Assembly: GCA_001244265.2 (NCBI GenBank)
Contig: LN717261.1
Coordinates: 1,055,813 to 1,106,590 of the forward strand
Length of the DNA: 50,778 nt
Source: Microbotryum violaceum
Lineage: Eukaryota
Direction of reading: 5' to 3'
Of this stretch, positions 1,734 to 34,181 are shown in pieces. Both the position numbers and the translations under genes were made by a program. The notes under the pieces are model-generated. The model had not been told where the DNA came from. It saw only the letters and a program-made list of their open reading frames with translations, and searched no databases. The stretch's first letter is position 1, and each line of letters opens with the position of its first letter.

Positions 1734-13475
<11,742 letters not shown>

Positions 13476-15213
13476 CGATCTCCTGCCACGCCCACGCGAT
13501 GTTGCTTCGCTATGCCAGGCGCAGGAGTTTCCGACGACGTGGATGACGCACTCCACTCACCCTCTGCCGTGGCCTACCTTGCCTCTGGCACTGCCGCCCT
13601 CATTGAGACCTCGCCCGCCGACCCTGCGGAACTGATTGCCCCCGCTCGCGACCCACCTCACTGGCGAGCGGCCATGGCCACTCCTCAAGCGGATGAATGG
13701 CGTCTTGCGGCCCGCGACGAGTTTGACTCACTCTTGCGAGATTTTTCGGCGTTCACACCGATTGACGAGTCCCTTGTCCAGCAGACGCCAAGGTCCTGGG
13801 CTCCGCTTTGTCTTCCGCACCAAACGCGACCAGCATGGCCAAGTCAAGTCCTACAAGGGCCGTCTTGTTGCTCGTGGTGACTCCCAACGCTCTGGCATTG
13901 ACTTTGACGAGACCTTTGCACCCGTGGCCAAATTCACCTCCATCCGCGCACTCCTGGCTCTTGCTGCTGCTCATGGGTACCACGTCCACCAGGCCGACAT
14001 CGACAAAGCCTACCTGCACGGCAAACTCGACGCACCCCTGTACATTCGTGTGCCTGATGGCATCTACATGCCAGGCAAGGTCCTCCAACTGCATCGGTCC
14101 CTCTATGGTTTGCGCCAGGCCGGTCGCATCTGGAACGACGAGATTGACTCTGCCTTGTCCGCACTCGGCTACGTCGCCACCGAATCCGACCACTGCGTCT
14201 ACGTCAGGACAACGGGTGATGTGCACCACTACATTGCGCTCTATGTCGACGACCTGCTCATGATCAGCCCCTCTCTCCCTGAGATTGAGCGTACCCTTCA
14301 GGGTCTTGAGCAGCGCTATGGTGTCAAACGGCTCGGTGAGGCGGAATATGTCCTCGGCATCCAGATCCGGCGCTCTCCAGACGGTTCCATCTCTCTGAGT
14401 CAGGAACAATACCTCAAGGACGTCCTTGCCCGATTTGGAATGTCTGATGCCCATCCCGTCGCCACGCCCATGCAGCCCGATCTCCGCCTCGAAGTCGAGC
14501 TGCAGCCCACCCCATTCCCGGATCGCACTCGGTACCTGCAGGCCATTGGTTCCCTTATGTACGCGTCCACTGGTACTCGGCCCGACCTGGCTTACACCGT
14601 CGGTTACTTGGCTCGCTTCTCTCACTCGCCTTCCGCTGCTGCTTGGGGAGCTGTCAAACACGCCTTCCGTTACCTCGCTGGCACTCTTTCTCACGGCTTA
14701 CGCTACGCTCGTGGGAATCCGGCACCGCTCTTAGGCTACTCCGACTGCAACTGGGGTGCATGCGTCCTCTCTTCCAAGTCGACCATGGGTTACACTTTTG
14801 TCTATGCAGGTGCTGCCGTCTCATGGTCCTCCCGGCTTCAATCGCGCGTTGCCGACTCCACTTGTGACGCCGAGTACCTCGCACTGTCACACGCTGGTAA
14901 GGAGGCAATCTTTCTGCGTCAGCTCTTTGGTGAGCTTGGCCTTTCGTCTTCAAAGCCCGTCCTCATCTACGGCGACAACCAAGGCGCCAATGCTCTCACC
15001 AAGAATCCGGTATTTCATGCTCGGACTCGGCACATCCGCCTGCGCGAACACTTCGTCCGGGATATGGTTTCCATGGGCGACATTGTCGTCCAGTACATCA
15101 ACACTGGTGAGATGACAGCGGACATCTTCACCAAAGCATTGTCACGCGACCTCTTTGCTCGGCACCGCGGTCGACTCGGTATCTGTGCTCCCTGATACTC
15201 GAAGTAGGGGGGG

Positions 15214-15720
15214 TGTGAGATCAAATATCTCCTTCATGTCCTTCTTGTATCTTGTACCTACCTCAACATCCTCCTCTCTTCGTTTTGATCACTTTTGGCC
15301 TACTTTTCACCACCTTAGCTCTCCCACTCTGGGCCTGGTCTCTGCACCTGGGCCAGGTCCGTGCGCCTGACTTTGGCTGGGCTGACTTGGGCCCAGCCAA
15401 ATGGCCCCACTCTGGTTTCTCTCCTGCTCAAGCAACTTCTTGGTCTGGTCTCCCTTGGTCCTTCGATCAGAGACTTACCACCGCTTGAGCAGGTGAGCAC
15501 TACTCTTCCTATCATCTTTCACCCTTCTAGATGCGGTAACTTACTGTAGTGCTTGAGCAGGTGTGTAATAAGCAACTTCTTGGTCTGGTCTCCCTTGGTC
15601 CTTCGATCAGAGACTTACCACCGCTTGAGCAGGTGTGTAATAAGCAACTTCTTGGTCTGGTCTCCCTTGGTCCTTCGATCAGAGACTTACCACCGCTTGA
15701 GCAGGCGTGACAACATCACA
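15214..15720 (+). repeat. Family B 3' LTR (507 bp, TGTGA...TCACA, three units)
   Basis: Same length and junction type as the LTR at 20698-21204. Confidence 0.95.
15493..15704 (+). other. Three abutting putative introns in the family B LTR (15493-15560, 15561-15632, 15633-15704)
   Basis: GTGAGC...CTTAC...GAGCAG (68 nt) followed by two GTGTGT...CTTAC...GAGCAG (72 nt each). 507 minus 212 is 295 bp, the length of the B3 5' LTR. Confidence 0.7.
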
Positions 15721-15801
15721 GGTGCCGTCATCCAGATGTCGTGATCGAGGTCGTCGTGAAGATAGGCTTTGTCGATGTCCGCTTGGTGTACATGCAGGCC
15801 G
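15721..15801 (-). pseudogene. 81-bp inverted fragment of family A RT (belongs to host element A3)
   Basis: Reverse complement of A2 4963-5043 ([22 protein letters not shown]); its continuation is at 21205 on the plus strand. Confidence 0.92.
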
Positions 15802-16235
15802 TGTGATGTTGTCACGCCTGCTCAAGCGGTGGTAAGTCTCTGATCGAAGGACCAAGGGAGACCAGACCAAGAAGTTGCTTGTTACACACCTGCTCAAGCA
15901 CTACAGTAAGTTACCGCATCTAGAAGGGTGAAAGATGATAGGAAGAGTAGTGCTCACCTGCTCAAGCGGTGGTAAGTCTCTGATCGAAGGACCAAGGGAG
16001 ACCAGACCAAGAAGTTGCTTGAGCAGGAGAGAAACCAGAGTGGGCCATTTGGCTGGGCCCAAGTCAGCCCAGCCAAAGTCAGGCGCACGGACCTGGCCCA
16101 GGTGCAGAGACCAGGCCCAGAGTGGGAGAGCTAAGGTGGTGAAAAGTAGGCCAAAAGTGATCAAAACGAAGAGAGGAGGATGTTGAGGTAGGTACAAGAT
16201 ACAAGAAGGACATGAAGGAGATATTTGATCTCACA
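15802..16235 (-). repeat. Family B 3' LTR (434 bp, two units)
   Basis: Reverse complement of the B LTR next to the PPT C-run. Confidence 0.95.
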
Positions 16236-16253
16236 CCCCCCCTACTTCGAGTA

Positions 16254-19200
16254 TCAGGGAGCACAGATACCGAGTCGACCGCGGTGCCGAGCAAAGAGGT
16301 CGCGTGACAATGCTTTGGTGAAGATGTCCGCTGTCATCTCACCAGTGTTGATGTACTGGACGACAATGTCGCCCATGGAAACCATATCCCGGACGAAGTG
16401 TTCGCGCAGGCGGATGTGCCGAGTCCGAGCATGAAATACCGGATTCTTGGTGAGAGCATTGGCGCCTTGGTTGTCGCCGTAGATGAGGACGGGCTTTGAA
16501 GACGAAAGGCCAAGCTCACCAAAGAGCTGACGCAGAAAGATTGCCTCCTTACCAGCGTGTGACAGTGCGAGGTACTCGGCGTCACAAGTGGAGTCGGCAA
16601 CGCGCGATTGAAGCCGGGAGGACCATGAGACGGCAGCACCTGCATAGACAAAAGTGTAACCCATGGTCGACTTGGAAGAGAGGACGCATGCACCCCAGTT
16701 GCAGTCGGAGTAGCCTAAGAGCGGTGCCGGATTCCCACGAGCGTAGCGTAAGCCGTGAGAAAGAGTGCCAGCGAGGTAACGGAAGGCGTGTTTGACAGCT
16801 CCCCAAGCAGCAGCGGAAGGCGAGTGAGAGAAGCGAGCCAAGTAACCGACGGTGTAAGCCAGGTCGGGCCGAGTACCAGTGGACGCGTACATAAGGGAAC
16901 CAATGGCCTGCAGGTACCGAGTGCGATCCGGGAATGGGGTGGGCTGCAGCTCGACTTCGAGGCGGAGATCGGGCTGCATGGGCGTGGCGACGGATGGGCA
17001 TCAGACATTCCAAATCGGGCAAGGACGTCCTTGAGGTATTGTTCCTGACTCAGAGAGATGGAACCGTCTGGAGAGCGCCGGATCTGGATGCCGAGGACAT
17101 ATTCCGCCTCACCGAGCCGTTTGACACCATAGCGCTGCTCAAGACCCTGAAGGGTACGCTCAATCTCAGGGAGAGAGGGGCTGATCATGAGCAGGTCGTC
17201 GACATAGAGCGCAATGTAGTGGTGCACATCACCCGTTGTCCTGACGTAGACGCAGTGGTCGGATTCGGTGGCGACGTAGCCGAGTGCGGACAAGGCAGAG
17301 TCAATCTCGTCGTTCCAGATGCGACCGGCCTGGCGCAAACCATAGAGGGACCGATGCAGTTGGAGGACCTTGCCTGGCATGTAGATGCCATCAGGCACAC
17401 GAATGTACAGGGGTGCGTCGAGTTTGCCGTGCAGGTAGGCTTTGTCGATGTCGGCCTGGTGGACGTGGTACCCATGAGCAGCAGCAAGAGCCAGGAGTGC
17501 GCGGATGGAGGTGAATTTGGCCACGGGTGCAAAGGTCTCGTCAAAGTCAATGCCAGAGCGTTGGGAGTCACCACGAGCAACAAGACGGCCCTTGTAGGAC
17601 TTGACTTGGCCATGCTGGTCGCGTTTGGTGCGGAAGACAAAGCGGGAGCCCAGGACCTTGGCGTCTGCTGGGACAAGGGACTCGTCAATCGGTGTGAACG
17701 CCGAAAAATCTCGCAAGAGTGAGTCAAACTCGTCGCGGGCCGCAAGACGCCATTCATCCGCTTGAGGAGTGGCCATGGCCGCTCGCCAGTGAGGTGGGTC
17801 GCGAGCGGGGGCAATCAGTTCCGCAGGGTCGGCGGGCGAGGTCTCAATGAGGGCGGCAGTGCCAGAGGCAAGGTAGGCCACGGCAGAGGGTGAGTGGAGT
17901 GCGTCATCCACGTCGTCGGGAAACTCCTGCGCCTGGCATAGCGAAGCAACATCGCGTGGGCGTGGCAGGAGATCGATCGGGTCCGGGGAGTCGGACCGAG
18001 CGGGTGAGGGTGGCGCTGGCAACGCACGGGAGGCCACGGGGCGCGGGGAAGGACAAGGCGTGGAGATGGCCGAGTCAGAGCTACCTTGGTCAGAGGCGCT
18101 TGATGCAGGTGATTCCGGGTCAGGGAGCTCACGAGCAGGGGAGCCTTGGTCAGGGGCAGGGGGTGCGAGCGAGTCCTGGTCAGGGACCTCGCAGGCAGGG
18201 GCGGGACGGTGCGGGCCCTGGTCAGGGGCTGCCGGCACGGGTCGAGGTGGCTCAGCGCGAGGCGCGAGTGAGTGAGGGGAAGCAACGAGCGAAGGCTCAA
18301 GGGGGTCTACCTGGTCAGGGTATGCGTCAACAGTGACGGGGAGTGGGATTGGTTCAGCGCGAACGTCGGTGGCTGGCCGGAGTGCAGGGAACTCGGATTC
18401 ACGGAAGACAACATTGCGGCTGAGTTGTATCCTGCGCGTGGACGGCTCGAAGAGTCGGAAAGCCTTGGCATGGTGGTCAAAACCAACGAACAGGAGGGGT
18501 ACAGCCTTGGGGTCAAGGTCCGTGCGCTTGGCCGAGGGAAGGTGGTGCCAAGCGCGGCAGCCAAATGCGCAAAGAGTGGAGATATCAGGCGCAAAGCCGT
18601 GCCAACGGGTGTCGGGGATCTCACCACCAATGCCGGCGTGAGGCATCAGGTTTTTGCAGTGCACGTAGTACAAGGCAGCCTCACCCCAGAGGCGCGAATC
18701 AGCGCCAGAGGAGTAGAGCAGAGCAAGGATACCCTCCTTGATGGTGCGATTGCTGCGCTCGACACGCCCATTTTGTTGGGGTGTGTAAGGATAGTGAGTT
18801 CCCGACGAATGCCTTTGCTTGTACAGAAGTCGACAAAGTTGCGCAGAGTGAACTCGCCTCCATTGTCAGAGCGGATGGTCTTCACCTTGTTGCCGGTGGC
18901 ATTCTCGACTTCAAGGATCCAGTCGCGAAGGCGAGGGAAGACGTCACTTTTGAGTGCCAGGAGGATACACCAGTGCTTGCGAGAGAAGTCATCAATGATG
19001 ACCAGCATGTACCGATGTCCACCAAATGTAGGGCGAGGCATTTGCGCTACATCGACATGGAGGAGATCCAGGCGGCCAGAGGCAATGGACTTGGACCGGG
19101 CAAAGGGAGGGCATGCGCTTTGGAAGCGAGACAAGCATTGCAGTAAAAATCCCGGAGCTCCTGATCCTTATACACCCAATCCACCCCAGTAACCAAGCCT

Positions 19201-20584
19201 TTCTGCACAATGGTTTTGATTTGCGCAACGGGCAAGTGCGCGAGGCGACGGTGCAGAGTCAGCAAGGACACTTTGGTAGGGATGGCGAGGAGGGCTTTGG
19301 GCGTACAGGGTGTAGGTCCAAGTGCCAAGGCGTACAGGTTGTTCCCGATGGCTTGAGCGGTAGCGACGACGGCACCCGAGGGACGGGCGATGCTTGCACA
19401 ACGAGATGCGAAGGAGACGCGGTAGCCAAGTTGATCCAACTGGAAGACGGACAGCAGGTTGCACGGGAGATCCGGTACGAGGAGGACATTGGACACGGTG
19501 ATCGGACCCGTTGAAGTCTGGATGCAAATGGTGCCGCAACCGGTGGAAGGGAGGGAGCCGGCGACACCTCCAACTCGTGGGCCTGCGACCGTGCGAAGCT
19601 CGGAAAAAAGGCCCCTGTCGTTCGTCATATGGCGATTAGCGCCCGAGTCAAGGAGCCAAGCCGATTTGCGAAATGGCGAAGGTGTTGCGAGGAGACAGGC
19701 CGTGAACGACACAGAGTTGGGTGTGTCCACTGCGGCTGGTGACGCGACTGGCTGGGAGGCCCTCTTCTCGGCGGTGCGACGAGCTCGGTAGGCGGCGGCC
19801 CAGGCGGTGTCGGGGCATTCCCGGAGCCAGTGCAACTTGCGACAAGACGGATTTGGGCACGGCCTTGAACAGCCGTGGCGGGCCTGCGGGGTGGCGACGG
19901 CGGCAACAGGAGTATCGACGGGGCGGGCTTTGACATCGCGGTAAAGGCGCGTGAAGATCTCGGTGGCGGAGGGCATCGCAGTGGAATCGCCCTGGTCAGC
20001 AACGAAGGTGGTGCGCCAGGCGTCGAAGGACGAAGGAAGGCGAGCAAGCAAGTGCGAGGCGAGAAGGGCGTTCACGGTGACCTGCGAGTCCTGCAGCAGC
20101 CGGGCGTCGTTTTCGAAACTGTCGCGGAATTGCAGGAACAGGTCGGAGTGACGGGCACAGGGTCGGAGCTGAAGAGGCGTTGGATGACCGGTAGCAGATC
20201 GACAGCAGAGACGGTGCCGTAGCGTTCGCGAAGTGCCTGCCAGACCTTGGGTGCTGCGAGCGGTTCGTCGAGGTAAGGTGACAGGCCCGGGAGGACAGTT
20301 TGCGAATCGACGGAGGCGCAAATGGAGGAGCAGGCGTAGTGGTCCCAGAGAGGGACATACGAAGCAGGCCAAGACTCGAGTGGTACGCCCGTGTTGAGGT
20401 AACGGACGACGCCGGAGGGCAGGCGCGAACGGATGGCGAGGACCCAGTCTCGGTAGCCGGACGAGTTGCGAAGCAGCTCGGTCGTTGCGAAGGCCGCAGA
20501 GTGGGTGGGCGGGCGCAAGGGCGGCGCATCGGGCGTGGGCTCGCGGAGCTTGGCTTCAGGCGCGGAGGCGCCGGCGTCGGACAT
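16254..20584 (-). CDS. B2 Gag-Pol polyprotein (apparent frameshifts)
   Basis: ORFs 20072-20611, 19047-20372 (LLDSGAN), 18646-19134 (IRSDNGGEF), 16715-18673 (YVDDLL) and 16254-16979 (RNase H). Confidence 0.9.
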
Positions 20585-20661
20585 GTTGCGAAGGGTGAAA
20601 AAGTAGAGCAAAGGGCGGGCACGGAGGTGGCCGCACTGGTAGCTCGGTTGGGCTAATAACC

Positions 20662-20697
20662 TGTTGGAGCAGCTGGTAGCTTGTTGGGCTCATAACC
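20662..20697 (+). other. DNA copy of tRNA-iMet 5' half (about positions 5-40), inserted as an extra PBS in B2
   Basis: TGTTGGAGCAGCTGGTAGCTTGTTGGGCTCATAACC contains a D-arm GAGC/GCTT, the G29-G31 initiator stem and anticodon CAT. Absent from B3. Confidence 0.8.
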
Positions 20698-22490
<1,793 letters not shown>

Positions 22491-22997
22491 TGTGATGTTG
22501 TCACGCCTGCTCAAGCGGTGGTAAGTCTCTGATCGAAGGACCAAGGGAGACCAGACCAAGAAGTTGCTTGTTACACACCTGCTCAAGCGGTGGTAAGTCT
22601 CTGATCGAAGGACCAAGGGAGACCAGACCAAGAAGTTGCTTGTTACACACCTGCTCAAGCACTACAGTAAGTTACCGCATCTAGAAGGGTGAAAGATGAT
22701 AGGAAGAGTAGTGCTCACCTGCTCAAGCGGTGGTAAGTCTCTGATCGAAGGACCAAGGGAGACCAGACCAAGAAGTTGCTTGAGCAGGAGAGAAACCAGA
22801 GTGGGGCCATTTGGCTGGGCCCAAGTCAGCCCAGCCAAAGTCAGGCGCACGGACCTGGCCCAGGTGCAGAGACCAGGCCCAGAGTGGGAGAGCTAAGGTG
22901 GTGAAAAGTAGGCCAAAAGTGATCAAAACGAAGAGAGGAGGATGTTGAGGTAGGTACAAGATACAAGAAGGACATGAAGGAGATATTTGATCTCACA
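22491..22997 (-). repeat. B3 3' LTR (507 bp, three units)
   Basis: Reverse complement of the B LTR next to the PPT. Confidence 0.95.
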
Positions 22998-23031
22998 CCC
23001 CCCTACTTCGAGTATCAGGGAGCACAGATAC

Positions 23032-23373
23032 TGTGAGAGTTACAACTCTCTGTACTTCCTTCTCACATCATCTCCCTCTTTCTGTCTTGTCCTCTCTGTG
23101 ATTTTTGGCCTGTCCTTCACCCTGCTCTATCATCACTGGGCTTGGTCTGTGCACCTGCATCAAGCGCACGGACCTAGTCACTCTCTGCCTGGCTCCCCTT
23201 GCCTCTAGGCTGGGTCTGTGCGCTTGGCACTGGGGCACGGACCTGGTTGCGCACTTGCCCCAGCCAACTGGTTCCGCGCTTCTCACTCTCCTGCTCAAGC
23301 AACTTCATTGGTCTGGTCTCCCTGGTCCGTCGATCAGAGACTCACCACCGCTTGAGCAGTTGTACGGTTCATA
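23032..23373 (+). repeat. C1 5' LTR (342 bp, single unit, TG...TA)
   Basis: Repeat of 27988-28404 minus a 75-nt GT...AG segment. Confidence 0.95.
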
Positions 23374-23487
23374 GGTTATAAGCCACAACAAGCTACCAGC
23401 GCGGTCACCTCCGTGCCGCCCTCGTCGTCGTTTTTTTTTTTCGCGCTTCGCACGACTCAGCCTCGCCCTGCACCCTGCACGCCTGGC

Positions 23488-26400
23488 ATGTCCGACGACG
23501 CCATGTCCTTAACGCCTGGCATGTCCGACGACGCCAAGTCCTTAACGCCTGGCATGTCCGACGACGCCAAGTCCTTAACGCTCGCGGTCCCCCACCGCGC
23601 CCTCCCACACAGGTCGCAGCCTTCGCTGTTTCCGACCTTCTGCGCGACACCAACGGCTATCAAGACTGGGTCCTGACGCTATGCTCCCGTCTGCCCTCCG
23701 ACGTTATCGACTACCTTCAGTCTGGCGTCCCTTCGTCGTCCTGGCCGCCATCTTACGTTTCATTATGGATCACTACGCCCGCGCCTCGATCTGCGCCGCC
23801 GTCGACCCTCGGATGGTTCTTCCCGGCCTCTCGCAATACTTCGGCGACCCTCGCAGCGGTCACAAGATTTGGGTAGCTCTGCGCATGCGATATGGCGCTG
23901 TTTCGGCGGTCGATCTTCTCCCTGTCATCTCTCGACTCTTCAGTCCCGACCCTATGCCCGACACCGTCGACGAGTTCCTTCAGTTTCGCGACCGATTCGA
24001 GAACGACTCCCGCCTCCTCGACGACTCAAAGGTGACGACGGATTCCCTACTAGCGTCACACTTGCTCGCCCGGATGCCCTCCTCCCTCTCCGCCTGGCGC
24101 ACTACGTTTGTCAATTCTCAGGGCACATCCCGTACACTGCCCCTGCCGCCGAGATCCTCGACCGTATCTACCGCGAGATCAAGGCTCGTCCGGTCGACTC
24201 CCCCGTTGCCGCCACTACCACCTCTCAGCAACGCGTTCCCCATAGCCCTTGCCCCAACCCCCTTGCCGAAAGATGCACTGGCTTCGGGACTGTCCCGACA
24301 CCGCCTGGGCCGCCGCCTTCCGCGCCCGCAAGGCTGCCGCCGGAGCGACTTCGCGAAATCACAAGAAGGGTTCCCGCGCCGTCGCCTCTCCTGCCGTCAC
24401 CTCCCCTGCCGTCGACGAGAAGTCAGAACCCGCCACCTTCACAGCGTGCCTCCTCGCCACTCCGTCTTCCTTTCCTAAGTCGGCTTGGCTCCTCGACTCC
24501 GGCGCTAATCGCCACATGGCCAACGACAGCCAACTCTTCTCCACCCTCCGGCCGTTCGCTGGCCCGCACGTTGCTGGAGTTGCCGGTTCTCTTCCGTCCA
24601 CCGGTTGTGGCTCCGTCTGCCTCTCGACGTCAGCTGGCCCCGTTGTAGCGACCGACGTCCTCTTGGTACCTTCGCTCCCGTGCAACTTATTATCGGTCCG
24701 CCGCCTGGATCGACTCGGTTTCACCACCTCCTTCGGTTCCGGCCGCGCCACGATCCGCAACTCCTCAGGCACCGTCGTCGCCACGGCACAAGCAATCGCA
24801 AATGACCTATACGCGTTAACCGTCGCACCCTCACCCTGTATGCCCAATGCCCTCCTAGCCACCCCCCACAGAGTTTCCTTACTGACTATGCACCGTCGCT
24901 TCGCGCATTTACCCGTCGCGCAACTCAAGAGCGTCGTGCAGAAAGGTTTGGTCACTGGGGTGGATTGGGTATATTCAGAGGAAGAGGTTAGGTCTTTCAA
25001 TTGCAATGCTTGTCTCGCTTCCAAAGCGCATGCCCTCCCTTTTGCTCGTTCCAAGTCCATCGCGTCCGGTCGCCTGGACCTCGTCCACGTCGACGTCGCC
25101 CAAATGCCTCGGGCCAGCTTCGGCGGTCATCGCTGCATGCTTGTGATTGTCGACGACTACACCCGCAAACATTGGTGCATCCTCCTCACTCACAAAAGTG
25201 ACGTCTTTCACCGTCTCCGCGCCTGGATTCTTGAGGTAGAGAACGTCACGGGTGACCGGGTAAAGACTATTCGCTCCGACAATGGTGGCGAGTTCACTCT
25301 TCGGAACTTTGTCGATTTCTGTGTGGCCAAGGGTATACGTCGCGAGCTCACTATTCCGTACACCCCTCAACAAAACGGACGTGTTGAACGCACCAACCGC
25401 ACCATCAAAGAGGGTATCCTTGCTTTACTCTACTCGGCAGGTGCTGACACGCGCCTCTGGGCTGAGGCCGCCACGTACTTTGTACACTGCAAGAACTTGA
25501 TGCCGCACGCAGGCATTCGCGGTGATATCCCTGACACTTGTTGGTATGGCATTGCACCGGATGTATCCTCATTACGTGCCTTCGGTTGTCGTGCGTGGCA
25601 CTACCTTCCCTCGGTTAAGCGCACCGCCCTCGATCCCAAGGCTGTGCCGCTCATGTTCGTAGGGCTCGACGACCACGCGAAGGCGTATCGCCTATTTGAC
25701 CCGGCTACACGCAAAATCCTCCTCAGTCGCAACGTCGTCTTTCGTGAATCCGAGTTCCCTGCCTTGCAGAGCGTGGTCGACACCCACACTGGCACCACTC
25801 CACTTCCTGTGGCCGCCGACATTCACCCCGACCAGGTAGACCACTCTGAGCCGTCGCTCGTTGCTTCCCCTCACTCTCTGGCGCCTCGTGCCGAGCCCCC
25901 AGGACCCGCGCCCGCTGCCTTTGACCAAGGCCCGCGCCGTCCACTCCCCGCCCGCGTCCTCCCTGACCAGGATTCACGCGCGCGCCCTGCCTCTGACCAA
26001 GGCTCTCCTGCCTCCGACCAAGGCTCTCTTCCTGCCTCTGACCAAGGCTCTCTTCCTGCCTCTGACCAAGGCTCCCTCATCAACCGTACGGGTGGCCTCC
26101 CTGACCAGGACTCCCCGACACCCACGCCTCTGACCAGGGCAGCTCCGACTCGGCAATCTCCACGCCTTGTCCATCCCCTCGACCGGTGGTGCCACGTCCG
26201 TTGCCCGCGCCGTCCTCGCCCGCTCGATCCGAGTCCCCCGACCCTATCGACCTCTTGCCACGCTCGGGTGATATCGCTTCCGTCTGTCTCGCACCTGAAT
26301 TCCCCGACGACCTGGACGACGCCCTCCACTCGCCTCCACCTGTCGCCCACCTTGCCTCCGGTGTCGTCGCCTTGCTCAACACCGCGCCTACGGACTCGAC

Positions 26401-27969
26401 GGAACTGATCGCGCCCGCCCGGGATCCCCCTCACTGGCGTGCTGCCATGGCAACCCCTCAAGCTGACGAGTGGCGTCTCGCTGCCCAGGCCGAATTCGAC
26501 TCACTTTCTCGCGATTTCTCCGCTTTCACACCAATTGATGAGTCCCTCGTGCCTGCAGATGCTAGGATCCTCGGCTCTCGATTCGTCTTCCGTACGAAAC
26601 GCAACCAGCACGGTCAGGTCAAGTCTTACAAAGGTCGACTTGTTGCCCGTGGCGACTCTCAGCGCTCGGGCATCGATTTTGACGAGACCTTCGCACCCGT
26701 CGCTAAGTTCACATCCATTCGCGCACTCCTCGCCCTCACAGCCGTCCATGGTTACCACATTCATCAGGCCGACATTGACAAGGCCTACCTCCACGGTAAA
26801 TTGGACAAGCCACTCTACATTCGCGTACCCGATGGAGTCTACATGCCGGGCAAGGTTCTCCAGCTGCACCGCTCTCTCTACGGCTTGCGCCAGGCTGGAC
26901 GTATTTGGAACGACGAGATCGACTCTGCCTTGTCGGCTCTCGGCTACACCGCCACGGAGTCGGACCACTGCGTTTACGTTTGGGCGGCCGGTGATGAGCG
27001 TCACTATATTGCGCTCTACGTTGACGACTTGCTCATGATCAGCCCTTCTCTCCCAGAGATCGAGCGTACCCTCCATGGTCTCGAGCAGCGTTACGGCGTC
27101 AAACGACTTGGTCAGGCAGAATACATCCTCGGCATCCAAATTCGGCGCTCCAACGACGGCTCCATCACTCTCAGTCAGGAGCAGTACCTCAAGGACGTTC
27201 TTGCTCGCTTCGGTATGTCCGATGCTCACTCTGTCGCCACACCCATGCAGCCCGATCTCCGCCTCGAAGTCGAACTCCAACCCACCCCATTCCCGGATCG
27301 AACTCGGTACCTGCAAGCGATCGGCTCTCTTATGTATGCTTCTACGGTACACGTCCCGACCTCGCCTACACCGTCGGATATCTGGCTCGCTTCTCTCGTT
27401 CACCGTCTGCTGCTGCCTGGGGTGCAATCAAGCACGCCTTCCGCTACGTTGCCGGCACTCTATCTCACGGCTTACGCTACACTCGTGGTGATCCGGCTCC
27501 CTTGGTCGGCTACTCGGACTGCAATTGGGGTGCATGCCTCTTATCCTCCAGATCGACTATGGGTTACAACTTTACCTACGCAGGTGCCGCCGTCTCCTGG
27601 TCCTCCCGTCTACAGTCACGCGTCGCCGACTCCACTTGCGACGCCGAGTACCTCGCTCTGTCCCACGCCGGCAAGGAGGCCATTTTCCTACGTCAACTCT
27701 TTGGTGAGCTTGGTCTCCCTTCTTCACAGCCCGTCCTCATCTACGGCGACAATCAGGGTGCCAATGCTCTCACCAAAAACCCGGTCTTCCATGCTTGCAC
27801 TCGACACATTCGGCTTCGCGAACACTTTGTCCGGGATATGGTCTCCATGGGCGACATCGTCGTCCAATACATTGCCACCAGCGAGATGACGGCGGATATC
27901 TTCACCAAGGCCTTGTCTCGTGATCTCTTTGCTCGGCACCGCGGCCGACTTGGTGTCTGTGCTCCCTGA
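23488..27969 (+). CDS. C1 Gag-Pol polyprotein (apparent frameshifts)
   Basis: ORFs 23413-23676, 23681-24478, 24249-26408, 26186-27889 and 27502-27969 with [22 protein letters not shown] and ADIFTKAL. Confidence 0.9.
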
Positions 27970-27987
27970 TGTTCGAAGTAGGGGGGG

Positions 27988-28404
27988 TGTGAGAGTTACA
28001 ACTCTCTGTACTTCCTTCTCACATCATCTCCCTCTTTCTGTCTTGTCCTCTCTGTGATTTTTGGCCTGTCCTTCACCCTGCTCTATCATCACTGGGCTTG
28101 GTCTGTGCACCTGCATCAAGCGCACGGACCTAGTCACTCTCTGCCTGGCTCCCCTTGCCTCTAGGCTGGGTCTGTGCGCTTGGCACTGGGGCACGGACCT
28201 GGTTGCGCACTTGCCCCAGCCAACTGGTTCCGCGCTTCTCACTCTCCTGCTCAAGCAACTTCATTGGTCTGGTCTCCCTGGTCCGTCGATCAGAGACTCA
28301 CCACCGCTTGAGCAGGTGTGTAATCTCAAGCAACTTCATTGGTCTGGTCTCCCTGGTCCGTCGATCAGAGACTCACCACCGCTTGAGCAGTTGTACGGTT
28401 CATA
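27988..28404 (+). repeat. C1 3' LTR (417 bp, two units)
   Basis: Follows PPT GAAGTAGGGGGGG; ends TTCATA followed by the TSD. Confidence 0.95.
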
Positions 28405-31400
28405 GATACCGAGTCGACCGCGGTGCGAGCAAAGAGGTCGCGTGACAATGCTTTGGTGAAGATGTCCGCTGTCATCTCACCAGTGTTGATGTACTGGACG
28501 ACAATGTCGCCCATGGAAACCATATCCCGGACGAAGTGTTCGCGCAGGCGGATGTGCCGAGTCCGAGCATGAAATACCGGATTCTTGGTGAGAGCATTGG
28601 CGCCTTGGTTGTCGCCGTAGATGAGGACGGGCTTTGAAGACGAAAGGCCAAGCTCACCAAAGAGCTGACGCAGAAAGATTGCCTCCTTACCAGCGTGTGA
28701 CAGTGCGAGGTACTCGGCGTCACAAGTGGAGTCGGCAACGCGCGATTGAAGCCGGGAGGACCATGAGACGGCAGCACCTGCATAGACAAAAGTGTAACCC
28801 ATGGTCGACTTGGAAGAGAGGACGCATGCACCCCAGTTGCAGTCGGAGTAGCCTAAGAGCGGTGCCGGATTCCACGAGCGTAGCGTAAGCCGTGAGAAAG
28901 AGTGCCAGCGAGGTAACGGAAGGCGTGTTTGACAGCTCCCCAAGCAGCAGCGGAAGGCGAGTGAGAGAAGCGAGCCAAGTAACCGACGGTGTAAGCCAGG
29001 TCGGGCCGAGTACCAGTGGACGCGTACATAAGGGAACCAATGGCCTGCAGGTACCGAGTGCGATCCGGGAATGGGGTGGGCTGCAGCTCGACTTCGAGGC
29101 GGAGATCGGGCTGCATGGGCGTGGCGACGGGATGGGCATCAGACATTCCAAATCGGGCAAGGACGTCCTTGAGGTATTGTTCCTGACTCAGAGAGATGGA
29201 ACCGTCTGGAGAGCGCCGGATCTGGATGCCGAGGACATATTCCGCCTCACCGAGCCGTTTGACACCATAGCGCTGCTCAAGACCCTGAAGGGTACGCTCA
29301 ATCTCAGGGAGAGAGGGGCTGATCATGAGCAGGTCGTCGACATAGAGCGCAATGTAGTGGTGCACATCACCCGTTGTCCTGACGTAGACGCAGTGGTCGG
29401 ATTCGGTGGCGACGTAGCCGAGTGCGGACAAGGCAGAGTCAATCTCGTCGTTCCAGATGCGACCGGCCTGGCGCAAACCATAGAGGGACCGATGCAGTTG
29501 GAGGACCTTGCCTGGCATGTAGATGCCATCAGGCACACGAATGTACAGGGGTGCGTCGAGTTTGCCGTGCAGGTAGGCTTTGTCGATGTCGGCCTGGTGG
29601 ACGTGGTACCCATGAGCAGCAGCAAGAGCCAGGAGTGCGCGGATGGAGGTGAATTTGGCCACGGGTGCAAAGGTCTCGTCAAAGTCAATGCCAGAGCGTT
29701 GGGAGTCACCACGAGCAACAAGACGGCCCTTGTAGGACTTGACTTGGCCATGCTGGTCGCGTTTGGTGCGGAAGACAAAGCGGGAGCCCAGGACCTTGGC
29801 GTCTGCTGGGACAAGGGACTCGTCAATCGGTGTGAACGCCGAAAAATCTCGCAAGAGTGAGTCAAACTCGTCGCGGGCCGCAAGACGCCATTCATCCGCT
29901 TGAGGAGTGGCCATGGCCGCTCGCCAGTGAGGTGGGTCGCGAGCGGGGCAATCAGTTCCGCAGGGTCGGCGGGCGAGGTCTCAATGAGGGCGGCAGTGCC
30001 AGAGGCAAGGTAGGCCACGGCAGAGGGTGAGTGGAGTGCGTCATCCACGTCGTCGGGAAACTCCTGCGCCTGGCATAGCGAAGCAACATCGCGTGGGCGT
30101 GGCAGGAGATCGATCGGGTCCGGGGAGTCGGACCGAGCGGGTGAGGGTGGCGCTGGCAACGCACGGGAGGCCACGGGGCGCGGGGAAGGACAAGGCGTGG
30201 AGATGGCCGAGTCAGAGCTACCTTGGTCAGAGGCGCTTGATGCAGGTGATTCCGGGTCAGGGAGCTCACGAGCAGGGGAGCCTTGGTCAGGGGCAGGGGT
30301 GCGAGCGAGTCCTGGTCAGGGACCTCGCAGGCAGGGGCGGGACGGTGCGGGCCCTGGTCAGGGGCTGCCGGCACGGGTCGAGGTGGCTCAGCGCGAGGCG
30401 CGAGTGAGTGAGGGGAAGCAACGAGCGAAGGCTCAAGGGGGTCTACCTGGTCAGGGTATGCGTCAACAGTGACGGGGAGTGGGATTGGTTCAGCGCGAAC
30501 GTCGGTGGCTGGCCGGAGTGCAGGGAACTCGGATTCACGGAAGACAACATTGCGGCTGAGTTGTATCCTGCGCGTGGACGGCTCGAAGAGTCGGAAAGCC
30601 TTGGCATGGTGGTCAAAACCAACGAACAGGAGGGGTACAGCCTTGGGGTCAAGGTCCGTGCGCTTGGCCGAGGGAAGGTGGTGCAAGCGCGGCAGCCAAA
30701 TGCGCAAAGAGTGGAGATATCAGGCGCAAAGCCGTGCCAACGGGTGTCGGGGATCTCACCACCAATGCCGGCGTGAGGCATCAGGTTTTTGCAGTGCACG
30801 TAGTACAAGGCAGCCTCACCCCAGAGGCGCGAATCAGCGCCAGAGGAGTAGAGCAGAGCAAGGATACCCTCCTTGATGGTGCGATTGCTGCGCTCGACAC
30901 GCCCATTTTGTTGGGGTGTGTAAGGGATAGTGAGTTCCCGACGAATGCCTTTGCTTGTACAGAAGTCGACAAAGTTGCGCAGAGTGAACTCGCCTCCATT
31001 GTCAGAGCGGATGGTCTTCACCTTGTTGCCGGTGGCATTCTCGACTTCAAGGATCCAGTCGCGAAGGCGAGGGAAGACGTCACTTTTGAGTGCCAGGAGG
31101 ATACACCAGTGCTTGCGAGAGAAGTCATCAATGATGACCAGCATGTACCGATGTCCACCAAATGTAGGGCGAGGCATTTGCGCTACATCGACATGGAGGA
31201 GATCCAGGCGGCCAGAGGCAATGGACTTGGACCGGGCAAAGGGGAGGGCATGCGCTTTGGAAGCGAGACAAGCATTGCAGTAAAAATCCCGGAGCTCCTG
31301 ATCCTTATACACCCAATCCACCCCAGTAACCAAGCCTTTCTGCACAATGGTTTTGATTTGCGCAACGGGCAAGTGCGCGAGGCGACGGTGCAGAGTCAGC

Positions 31401-32721
31401 AAGGACACTTTGGTAGGGATGGCGAGGAGGGCTTTGGGCGTACAGGGTGTAGGTCCAAGTGCCAAGGCGTACAGGTTGTTCCCGATGGCTTGAGCGGTAG
31501 CGACGACGGCACCCGAGGGACGGGCGATGCTTGCACAACGAGATGCGAAGGAGACGCGGTAGCCAAGTTGATCCAACTGGAAGACGGACAGCAGGTTGCA
31601 CGGGAGATCCGGTACGAGGAGGACATTGGACACGGTGATCGGACCCGTTGAAGTCTGGATGCAAATGGAGCCGCAACCGGTGGAAGGGAGGGAGCCGGCG
31701 ACACCTCCAACTCGTGGGCCTGCGACCGTGCGAAGCTCGGAAAAAAGGCCCCTGTCGTTCGTCATATGGCGATTAGCGCCCGAGTCAAGGAGCCAAGCCG
31801 ATTTGCGAAATGGCGAAGGTGTTGCGAGGAGACAGGCCGTGAACGACACAGAGTTGGGTGTGTCCACTGCGGCTGGTGACGCGACTGGCTGGGAGGCCTT
31901 CTTCTCGGCGGTGCGACGAGCTCGGTAGGCGGCGGCCCAGGCGGTGTCGGGGCATTCCCGGAGCCAGTGCAACTTGCGACAAGACGGATTTGGGCACGGC
32001 CTTGAACAGCCGTGGCGGGCCTGCGGGGTGGCGACGGCGGCAACAGGAGTATCGACGGGGCGGGCTTTGACATCGCGGTAAAGGCGCGTGAAGATCTCGG
32101 TGGCGGAGGGCATCGCAGTGGAATCGCCCTGGTCAGCAACGAAGGTGGTGCGCCAGGCGTCGAAGGACGAAGGAAGGCGAGCAAGCAAGTGCGAGGCGAG
32201 AAGGGCGTTCACGGTGACCTGCGAGTCCTGCAGCAGCCGGGCGTCGTTTTCGAAACTGTCGCGGAATTGCAGGAACAGGTCGGGAGTGACGGGCACAGGG
32301 TCGGAGCTGAAGAGGCGTTGGATGACCGGTAGCAGATCGACAGCAGAGACGGTGCCGTAGCGTTCGCGAAGTGCCTGCCAGACCTTGGGTGCTGCGAGCG
32401 GTTCGTCGAGGTAAGGTGACAGGCCCGGGAGGACAGTTTGCGAATCGACGGAGGCGCAAATGGAGGAGCAGGCGTAGTGGTCCAGAGAGGGACATACGAA
32501 GCAGGCCAAGACTCGAGTGGTACGCCCGTGTTGAGGTAACGGACGACGCCGGAGGGCAGGCGCGAACGGATGGCGAGGACCCAGTCTCGGTAGCCGGACG
32601 AGTTGCGAAGCAGCTCGGTCGTTGCGAAGGCCGCAGAGTGGGTGGGCGGGCGCAAGGGCGGCGCATCGGGCGTGGGCTCGCGGAGCTTGGCTTCAGGCGC
32701 GGAGGCGCCGGCGTCGGACAT
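28405..32721 (-). pseudogene. B3 Gag-Pol; last codons (23015-23031) separated by C1
   Basis: ORFs 32209-32721, 30443-32509, 29952-30707, 28853-29914 and 28365-28943. Confidence 0.9.
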
Positions 32722-32798
32722 GTTGCGAAGGGTGAAAAAGTAGAGCGAAGGGCGGGCACGGAGGTGGCCGCACTGGTAGCTCGGTTGGGCTAATAACC

Positions 32799-33093
32799 TG
32801 TGATGTTGTCACGCCTGCTCAAGCGGTGGTAAGTCTCTGATCGAAGGACCAAGGGAGACCAGACCAAGAAGTTGCTTGAGCAGGAGAGAAACCAGAGTGG
32901 GGCCATTTGGCTGGGCCCAAGTCAGCCCAGCCAAAGTCAGGCGCACGGACCTGGCCCAGGTGCAGAGACCAGGCCCAGAGTGGGAGAGCTAAGGTGGTGA
33001 AAAGTAGGCCAAAAGTGATCAAAACGAAGAGAGGAGGATGTTGAGGTAGGTACAAGATACAAGAAGGACATGAAGGAGATATTTGATCTCACA
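32799..33093 (-). repeat. B3 5' LTR (295 bp, single unit, intron-less form)
   Basis: Reads ...CTTGAGCAG|GCGTGACAACATCACA, followed by a single PBS at 32773-32798. Confidence 0.95.
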
Positions 33094-33455: not shown

Positions 33456-34181
33456 GGTTATTTGCCCATCAACCTACCGCTGGCATGGACACGTCGTCGC
33501 CCCTAAAGACGGGTGCCCACCCAACAATCCCCGCCGAACAGCTTGCCGCACTTACGTCGCTGCTGTCGGGTCTCACCACTGCCACATCCGCCACGTCGTC
33601 CGGCACCTCTTGCCCGCCTTTCCCAAGCACGCACACTTGGATGGGCCCAAGACGTTTGCGAGCTGGACACGCCAGCTTCGCCTCTGCCTCGCGGACGACA
33701 TCCGCTCATACGTCCTCGACGGGATCGTGCCCGCCGACTGGACACCTTTGCACCGCTCTGCCCGCGATGTCGTGGCACGTGAGCTCCTAGCGAACTCGAT
33801 CGACTCAGCCGACATCTCGGCAGTCCTCGACCAAATCCCTACCGCCGACCTCACAGCGCCCAAAATCTATTCGACGCTGAAATCGCGGTATGCTCCGGAT
33901 GACGCCACTCGCACGCTCGAGCTCTTCTCACGACTATGGAGTTTCCGGCCCATGCCCGGCACCGTTGGCGAATTCGACGGCTGGATCATGGAGTTCAAAG
34001 CCATTGCGCAAGAAATCATTGATACGAAGACGACTATCAATGATGTTCCTGCCACACTCCTTCTCGCCATTGCACACCCGTCCCTCGAGAGCTTCAAGGC
34101 ATTGTTCACCGATGAACAGCGCACCCAAAGATCTCTCCCTGCCATTGATTCGCTTGCCGATCGCATGCGTGTCCAACTTCG

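Follow-up and report, generated by a model that had tools for sequence, protein, structure and literature searches.

One member of a copia-like retrotransposon family in Microbotryum violaceum, B2, carries a double PBS. On its sense (minus) strand, 36 extra bases (20662-20697) separate the end of the 5' LTR from the element's own PBS, and 33 of them are complementary to tRNA-Met(CAT), running from position 40 down to position 8. We regard the insert as probably a plus-strand strong-stop copy of nearly the whole half-tRNA primer that was rescued by an aberrant second strand transfer. All coordinates refer to the window, the whole stretch of 50,778 nucleotides of contig LN717261.1 that was analysed, which is a nest of LTR retrotransposons with a G+C content of ~60%.

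The insert and the element that carries it

Self-BLAST delimits three B copies in the window: B1 (13476-15720, plus strand), whose 5' part is lost, B2 (15802-21204, minus strand), which as it stands has no target duplication, and B3 (22488-33093, minus strand), which has a C-family element inside. The B3 ORF at 30443-32509 contains Pol_BBD, gag_pre-integrs and rve (E 9.7e-13), and RVT_2 is found in the downstream ORFs of B2 (E 2.8e-58) and B3 (E 4.3e-61). With an integrase upstream of a copia-type reverse transcriptase, B is by its coding sequence a Ty1/copia element. Its structure consists of direct LTRs (TGTGAG...CATCACA), a PBS after the 5' LTR, the PPT GAAGTAGGGGGGG before the 3' LTR, and a 5-bp TSD, which is a perfect AGACG in B3 and GGTGC in the insertion P described below.

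The sense strand of B2 reads LTR...CAACATCACA / GGTTATGAGCCCAACAAGCTACCAGCTGCTCCAACA / GGTTATTAGCCCAACCGAGCTACCAGTGCGGCC..., with the 507-bp 5' LTR (20698-21204, minus strand) ending in ...CATCACA where it adjoins the insert. B3 has the insert-free form, in which GGTTATTAGCCC... comes straight after the same LTR end and the PBS (32773-32798, minus strand) adjoins its own 5' LTR (32799-33093). A first-pass annotation made from the letters alone had noticed the 36 extra nucleotides between LTR and PBS in B2 and their absence from B3, and pairwise MAFFT alignment bears this out: over the shared ~4.4 kb, B2 and B3 differ by four substitutions, about ten one-base indels and the 36-nt indel, and their LTRs differ by 212 bp of tandem repeat. 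The indel has three equivalent placements, with ACA standing at both of its ends. The ACA at 20662-20664 (minus, sense strand) equals the last three LTR bases and could be either a duplicated U5 terminus or tRNA positions 5-7; the microhomology proposed for the join to the LTR end is present, and the exact placement of that junction is ambiguous. The complete 36-mer occurs once in the window, even with three mismatches allowed. Beyond it, the native PBS of B2, GGTTATTAGCCCAACCGAGCTACCAG (20636-20661, minus strand), is imperfect and now lies 36 nt away from the LTR; compared with the 33-nt block of the insert it has one mismatch at the first anticodon base, one extra C and one further mismatch. 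Thermodynamic folding was uninformative for the insert (z 0.21) and for the native PBS (z -0.65) alike.

The 5' LTR of B2 is identical at 507 of 507 positions to the 3' LTR of B1 (15214-15720, plus strand), which follows the PPT and is now inverted relative to B2. The LTR at the present 3' end of B2 (15802-16235, minus strand) comes from a second B copy, Q: it is 99.3% identical, has one repeat fewer and has no TSD in common with the 5' LTR. GGTGC at 15721-15725 corresponds to the reverse complement GCACC at 21205-21209, and the flanks of B1 (81 bp, the spacer 15721-15801) and of B2 fit a single site in an A-type element, at 5043..4963 and 5039..5232, where they overlap by 5 bp. From the LTR identity, the two TSD halves and the flanks, it follows that the 5' half of B2, insert included, and the 3' end of B1 are the two ends of one insertion, P. 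This insertion was split later, when two B copies in opposite orientation underwent an inversion that left B1 and B2 as the reciprocal recombinants. Since its LTR pair is fully identical and its target duplication matches, P is very young.

Several further features of these elements were observed. The LTRs of B and C vary in the number of ~72-bp internal tandem repeats, even within the LTR pair of one element (20698-21204, 32799-33093, 15802-16235 and 22488-22997; for C1, near 23032-23373 and 27988-28404). The roughly ten one-base G/C indels between B2 and B3 (20346, 20147, 19108, 18791, 18549, 18163, 17811, 16994, 16736 and 16288) disrupt the gag-pol frame differently in the two copies, and reflect either sequencing errors in the assembly or an unusual indel bias. 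The C-family element nested in B3 is complete (~23032-28404, plus strand), with an LTR and leader related to those of B, and the region consists of retrotransposons only; a protein-language look-alike search places the integrase region of the C element nearest to a cluster whose few classified members are Basidiomycota.

Identity of the tRNA block and of its template

Read on the plus strand, the block at 20665-20697 is a tRNA 5' half from U8 to C40: U8 (T8 in the DNA), G9, a GAGC/GCTT D-stem around AGCTGGTA, G26, TTGGG, CTCATAA and CC, all of them literally present at the insert as the first-pass annotation had read them. Prokaryotic genomes, one per species, were scanned with the 33-mer, allowing Y at position 25, which gave at least 122 matches in at least 121 loci. 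Among the matches listed, the block is identical at 32 of 33 positions to all 122, and 119 are tRNA-Met (cat) by ARAGORN. The single difference is at position 25, which is C in 122 of the 122 matches listed and T in the insert, and this counts against the reading as a primer copy. The first-pass annotation had assigned the insert to tRNA positions ~5-40, which holds for positions 8-40 and is unsupported for 5-7, as ACA is the LTR terminus and TGT stands at positions 5-7 in none of the 121 tRNA-Met genes scored among the matches listed.

The exact 33-mer is absent from the metagenome contigs scanned (0 matches). A pattern restricted to positions 16-41 retrieved at least 120 metagenome loci; among those listed, ARAGORN finds a tRNA-Met (cat) spanning the match in 111 of 120, and positions 8-15 read TGGAGCAG in 96 of the 115 with enough upstream sequence (95 of these 96 have one D-loop base more than the insert). 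These eight bases are exactly the insert bases past the usual PBS, and the loci were chosen without using them; the chance of such an anchored 8-mer match would be about 4^-8. Judged by sequence, the loci retrieved with this looser pattern are tRNA-Met (cat) genes mostly of the bacterial initiator type, and they carry no information on the host. From position 40 down to position 8, insert and initiator-type tRNA-Met are colinear. Among 4227 Rfam families, tRNA is the only match (model positions 8-39, 13.1 bits, E 0.9) when the stretch is cut at 20697 and a truncated match is allowed, a weak score if taken alone; the 201-nt context of the insert gave chance matches only, and the tRNA match appears solely when the stretch ends at 20697. 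ARAGORN reports no tRNA gene anywhere in the window. As an observation apart, primer positions 8-40 are near-identical to bacterial initiator tRNA-fMet genes (A11:T24 pair, GGAGCAG...GGTAGCT), and we take this D-arm to be unusually bacterial-looking for a eukaryotic initiator when set against the canonical ones.

The same tRNA complement recurs throughout the window. The PBS core motif has eight occurrences against 0.08 expected, and a fuzzy search yields 11 sites, namely ten native PBSs from five families (four of A, two each of B and C, and those of elements X and Y) and the insert. All 11 begin with GGTTAT directly after an LTR end, and the complement of positions 16-40 is common to all 11, with various mutations. 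The sites show copia/Ty5-type complementarity to the anticodon stem-loop of an initiator-type tRNA-Met, with a GGG/CC worth three G:C pairs, the CAT anticodon and a PBS start at about position 40 directly after U5. Position 40 as the primer end is already evident from every PBS, and the claim that the insert newly records the cleavage point therefore falls away. Since ordinary PBSs in this genome already extend to positions 16 to 10, the insert adds only positions 8-15, or 8-9 relative to element Y. Within B itself, the block runs 8 nt (positions 15 to 8) beyond the point at which the element's own PBS ceases to match.

Independent support for the D-arm bases comes from element Y, a small element unrelated to B, whose PBS GGTTATGAGCCAATGAGCTACCAGCTGCTC (44366-44395, plus strand) contains the complement of positions 10-15 (GAGCAG). 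The 13-mer CTACCAGCTGCTC, the complement of positions 22 to 10, is found in the window only in this PBS and in the insert. Y has an LTR end and leader unlike those of B and yet the same tRNA complement down to G10; B2 is therefore not alone in having the D-arm bases found in the insert. The PBS of element X, GGTTATGAGCCCAACGAGCTACCAGC (44649-44674, plus strand), matches the anticodon arm perfectly and reaches about position 15-16. In the B-related family C, the C1 PBS (23374-23400, plus strand) shares CAACAAGCTACCAGC with the insert, including the T at tRNA position 25; C2 (38157-38183) is the second copy of this family. Family A (1705-1728 and 33456-33479, plus strand; 9862-9885 and 13139-13162, minus strand) has the most decayed version of the complement. 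Position 25 is C in families B, X and Y and in three of the four A copies.

Two further aspects of these sites concern the anticodon and the bases past the PBS. Families A, B and C have a mismatch opposite the first anticodon base, C34, with a different base in each family (20655 in the native PBS of B2, 32792 in B3, 23380 and 38163 in C, 1711-1712 in A), and X, Y and the insert are perfect there; such a mismatch may be tolerated or even favoured in A, B and C. Acceptor-stem-like strings past the PBSs of B, C and X (e.g., GGCGGGG in X) were considered and set aside, with P ~0.14 against 4000 random 16-mers from this GC-rich window. Element Y (44230-44560, plus strand) is a small element or a fragment, possibly a non-autonomous element. 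Its LTR-like end (...GTAGTAGAGTTGATYGAATA) is repeated twice, its PBS is followed by ATGGGTTCAAGCCCCCC, which resembles a tRNA T-arm in sense orientation, and ~180 bp further on a purine run, CACAGGGGG, adjoins the short LTR of element X.

A candidate for the host gene is glimpsed in the loose ends of contigs from four public runs (X1, X2, X9 and X17) aligned onto 20600-20740. One contig each in X1 and X2 fits up to 20694 (A37), then has 19 other letters (CTTCG.../CCTCGTACGAGTTAAAGTG), and then continues with ACCCAAAGGTC. The last 11 letters of these contigs correspond to A38, the 3' strand of the anticodon stem (CCCAA, which pairs with TTGGG) and a normal variable loop, and the 19 extra letters occupy the exact site of nuclear tRNA introns. 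We take these contigs to show a putative nuclear gene for tRNA-Met(CAT) in the host lineage, interrupted by an intron and seen from position 37 onward. In the insert, and in every PBS here, A37-A38-C39-C40 are contiguous. Because position 37 is followed by an interruption in the gene-like contigs but not in the insert, the insert and the PBSs reflect spliced RNA rather than the gene. The template would be the mature, spliced tRNA, as judged from ~30 loose contig letters in two runs.

The insert bases past the ordinary PBS are TGTTGGAGCA; a host tRNA-Met that would match them is indicated only indirectly, by loose contig ends that show the gene with its intron at and beyond position 37. Contig depth bears on the 5' side: the excess depth in the bin 20660-20664 is 15.2 x 5 = 76 in X1, against 74.5-76.7 for single-copy contigs, and 8.73 x 5 = 43.6 in X2, against 41.7. 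This would correspond to one single-copy contig beginning at 20664 and weakly suggests that the host gene fits only from position 7, a further point against assigning all of positions 5-7 to the tRNA. An organellar (mitochondrial) primer, considered on account of the near-identity to bacterial initiators, is made unlikely by the intron-bearing, gene-like contigs. The B3 form, with the 36 nt skipped, is present in X2, X9 and X17. No contig of the four runs bridges the B2-form junction at 20662-20665 or the whole stretch, which is not evidence of its absence, and the double PBS of B2 is seen in this assembly alone.

Origin of the insert

In orientation and place, the insert corresponds to plus-strand strong-stop DNA: it is a tRNA complement, starts at the primer 3' end and adjoins U5. 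According to the cited passage of PMC7197481, plus-strand strong-stop synthesis copies U3-R-U5 first and goes on into the primer, which is still joined to the minus strand, and transfer proceeds via PBS complementarity. The first-pass annotation had proposed that synthesis ran through the half-tRNA primer and left its copy as a second, LTR-proximal PBS, and this stands as the best explanation. B would have been primed from within an initiator-type tRNA-Met, as are Drosophila copia and yeast Ty5, with the primer 3' end at position 40. In the cycle that yielded P, or a very recent ancestor, plus-strand strong-stop DNA would have overrun the PBS part of the primer and read the anticodon arm, then G26 and all of the D-arm as far as U8, perhaps to position 7. 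The 3' end of this over-extended DNA would no longer have matched the decayed PBS of B, and may have joined, with 0-3 nt of homology, a minus strand extended three bases into U5 (ACA). From there, one strand could have served as the template for finishing the other, with the order LTR - primer copy - ACA - old PBS as the outcome, and the product would have integrated with a normal 5-bp duplication. It would now hold a new, perfect 33-nt complement at the proper place of a PBS, potentially usable as such in later cycles. The evidence shows the structure with its orientation and its start at position 40, its tRNA identity, its origin from spliced RNA and the youth of the copy, and from these we infer in what order the strands were transferred, that synthesis stopped at position 7/8 and that the new site is used.

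In typical eukaryotic tRNAs, G9 and G26 are often methylated, and such methyls block reverse transcriptase. This weighs against a copy that extends to U8, which would require either read-through or a primer that is hypomodified. We speculate that reading past G26, G10 and G9 implies either a primer that lacks the usual blocking methylations or a tolerant enzyme, and that a halt at position 7/8 would be in keeping with an acceptor stem that had stayed paired with the 3' half.

The block could also have reached B2 by RNA recombination, if a template switch between co-packaged RNAs took the LTR and block from a B subfamily with a long perfect block and the rest from an ordinary B, with no new primer copy made in that cycle. 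A 308-nt contig in X9 fits 20666-20712 without any other letter and thus places a B-type LTR end together with the perfect block in another organism, ahead of a different leader, and the summed depth of block-like contigs is appreciable in each of the four runs. However, the X9 contig diverges past 20666, reading CTCAA on the plus strand where B2 has T-TGT, so that such a donor is without the last one to four bases of B2 and has no ACA to guide the switch. Two exact switches at the block borders would be needed, and the block of any such donor would ultimately be a primer copy too. We consider this route unlikely. Less probable still is an event unrelated to priming, in which a tRNA cDNA or fragment was captured during break repair after integration, or an artefact of assembly. 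That the B2 junction comes from one assembly is compatible with either, and the many one-base G/C indels between B2 and B3 do suggest some sequencing error in it. Against a capture, the insert lies exactly at the U5/PBS border, has the orientation of a primer copy and begins at position 40 like ten of the ten native PBSs; against an artefact, the assembler had no overlap by which to join the block with the native PBS, and 47 nt of block and LTR are identical letter for letter in the independent run X9.

The insert forms a direct repeat with the native PBS, the two being equally long (36 nt) and ~75-80% alike, as would be expected if the element's own ACA and PBS had been duplicated locally in tandem and then diverged or undergone patchy conversion. 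Such a history would have to account for at least seven differences, two of them indels, within 33 nt, against four substitutions in ~4.4 kb and none in the 507 bp of the LTRs of P, and each difference brings the insert nearer to the tRNA sequence. This contrast in divergence effectively refutes a tandem duplication, to which we give hardly any credence.

If the insert is a strong-stop copy of the primer, as we favour, primer capture may have occurred more than once, and we raise only tentatively, as a rather doubtful idea, that it is recurrent and perhaps a regular route by which decayed PBSs are renewed in these copia-like families. B2 has a perfect primer copy, of the kind ending at positions 8-11, LTR-proximal to an older, decayed PBS-like copy, and the same layout, with different junctions, may be present in contigs of two other organisms and in element X (44649-44718). 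As weak hints of this, the perfect block in X9 and X17 continues, past junctions at 20666 and 20668, into ...GGTTGGGCTC(G)AAAAATCC..., which looks like a decayed PBS complement, and element X has a similar decayed-PBS-like string 6 nt past its PBS. A contig in X1, X2 and X9 has the block with four other letters, then TGTGA, and then again GGAGCAGC.... Such arrays may stem from additional captures or from a single old one passed on by descent. If recurrence were real, the arrays would be a stratigraphic record of successive priming accidents, and the packaged tRNA half would be readable through G26, G10 and G9, and hence without the usual methylations that block reverse transcriptase.

Comparison with known priming systems

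Both the priming mode and the over-reading of the primer by strong-stop DNA are already known. Our literature search found no chromosomal LTR element with a near full-length copy of a half-tRNA primer as a second PBS; older Ty1 work may hold closer precedents. To our knowledge, half-tRNA priming has been described for very few elements, and the primer biochemistry comes mainly from copia. A primer copy in the chromosome would provide the identity of the primer without biochemistry, here a spliced, nuclear, initiator-type tRNA-Met, together with its 3' end (position 40) and the extent to which the reverse transcriptase read it (to U8, past positions that are usually methylated). B2 probably also indicates that over-extended plus-strand strong-stop DNA, usually deemed a dead end, can be rescued and integrated, and it points to a simple way for an element to regain a perfect PBS after its own has mutated.

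Work on PBS inheritance and on errors at the U5/PBS border in Ty1 (Lauermann and Boeke 1994, 1997; Gabriel and co-workers) reportedly dealt with short additions in experimental cDNA. That work concerns the same replication step and junction as B2, and is not known to describe any natural genomic element with a 33-nt primer copy. For the half-tRNA priming of copia and Ty5, Kikuchi 1986 and Ke 1999 are said to be the references. In the passages cited here, copia uses a 5' half-tRNA as its primer, and in Ty5 the primer 3' end arises by cleavage in the anticodon loop (PMC5371799, PMC10275265). As described there for copia and Ty5, the PBS of the present elements adjoins the 5' LTR and pairs with the anticodon stem-loop rather than with the 3' end of the tRNA (PMC5371799, PMC10275265). 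The primer 3' end two bases past the anticodon loop, deduced here from the PBSs, likewise appears to agree with what these passages describe. Unlike copia and Ty5 as portrayed in the same passages, the ordinary PBSs here pair over 25-31 nt, into the D-arm, and one B copy has a second, near full-length primer copy.

In HIV-1, which is primed by tRNA-Lys3, the cited part of PMC8599865 names m1A58 and m5Um54 as stop sites in plus-strand strong-stop synthesis, and describes how an over-copied primer makes the plus-strand DNA non-complementary to the minus strand, leaving a product that is unable to complete and integrate. The plus-strand DNA of B2 would resemble this read-through in having copied more of the primer than the PBS. 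Unlike the HIV-1 product described there, the equivalent product in B2 was apparently completed, integrated and fixed in the chromosome, and its stop would lie near the 5' end of the half-tRNA, in contrast to a stop at a modified T-loop base (PMC8599865). Two sites for one primer tRNA in an LTR element are also reported in the cited section on the Gypsy endogenous retrovirus, which has two primer sites for tRNA-Lys,2, described as functional (PMC1635307). B2 is like Gypsy in this respect, and differs from the arrangement given in that section in that its double site is an insertion polymorphism between near-identical copies (PMC1635307).
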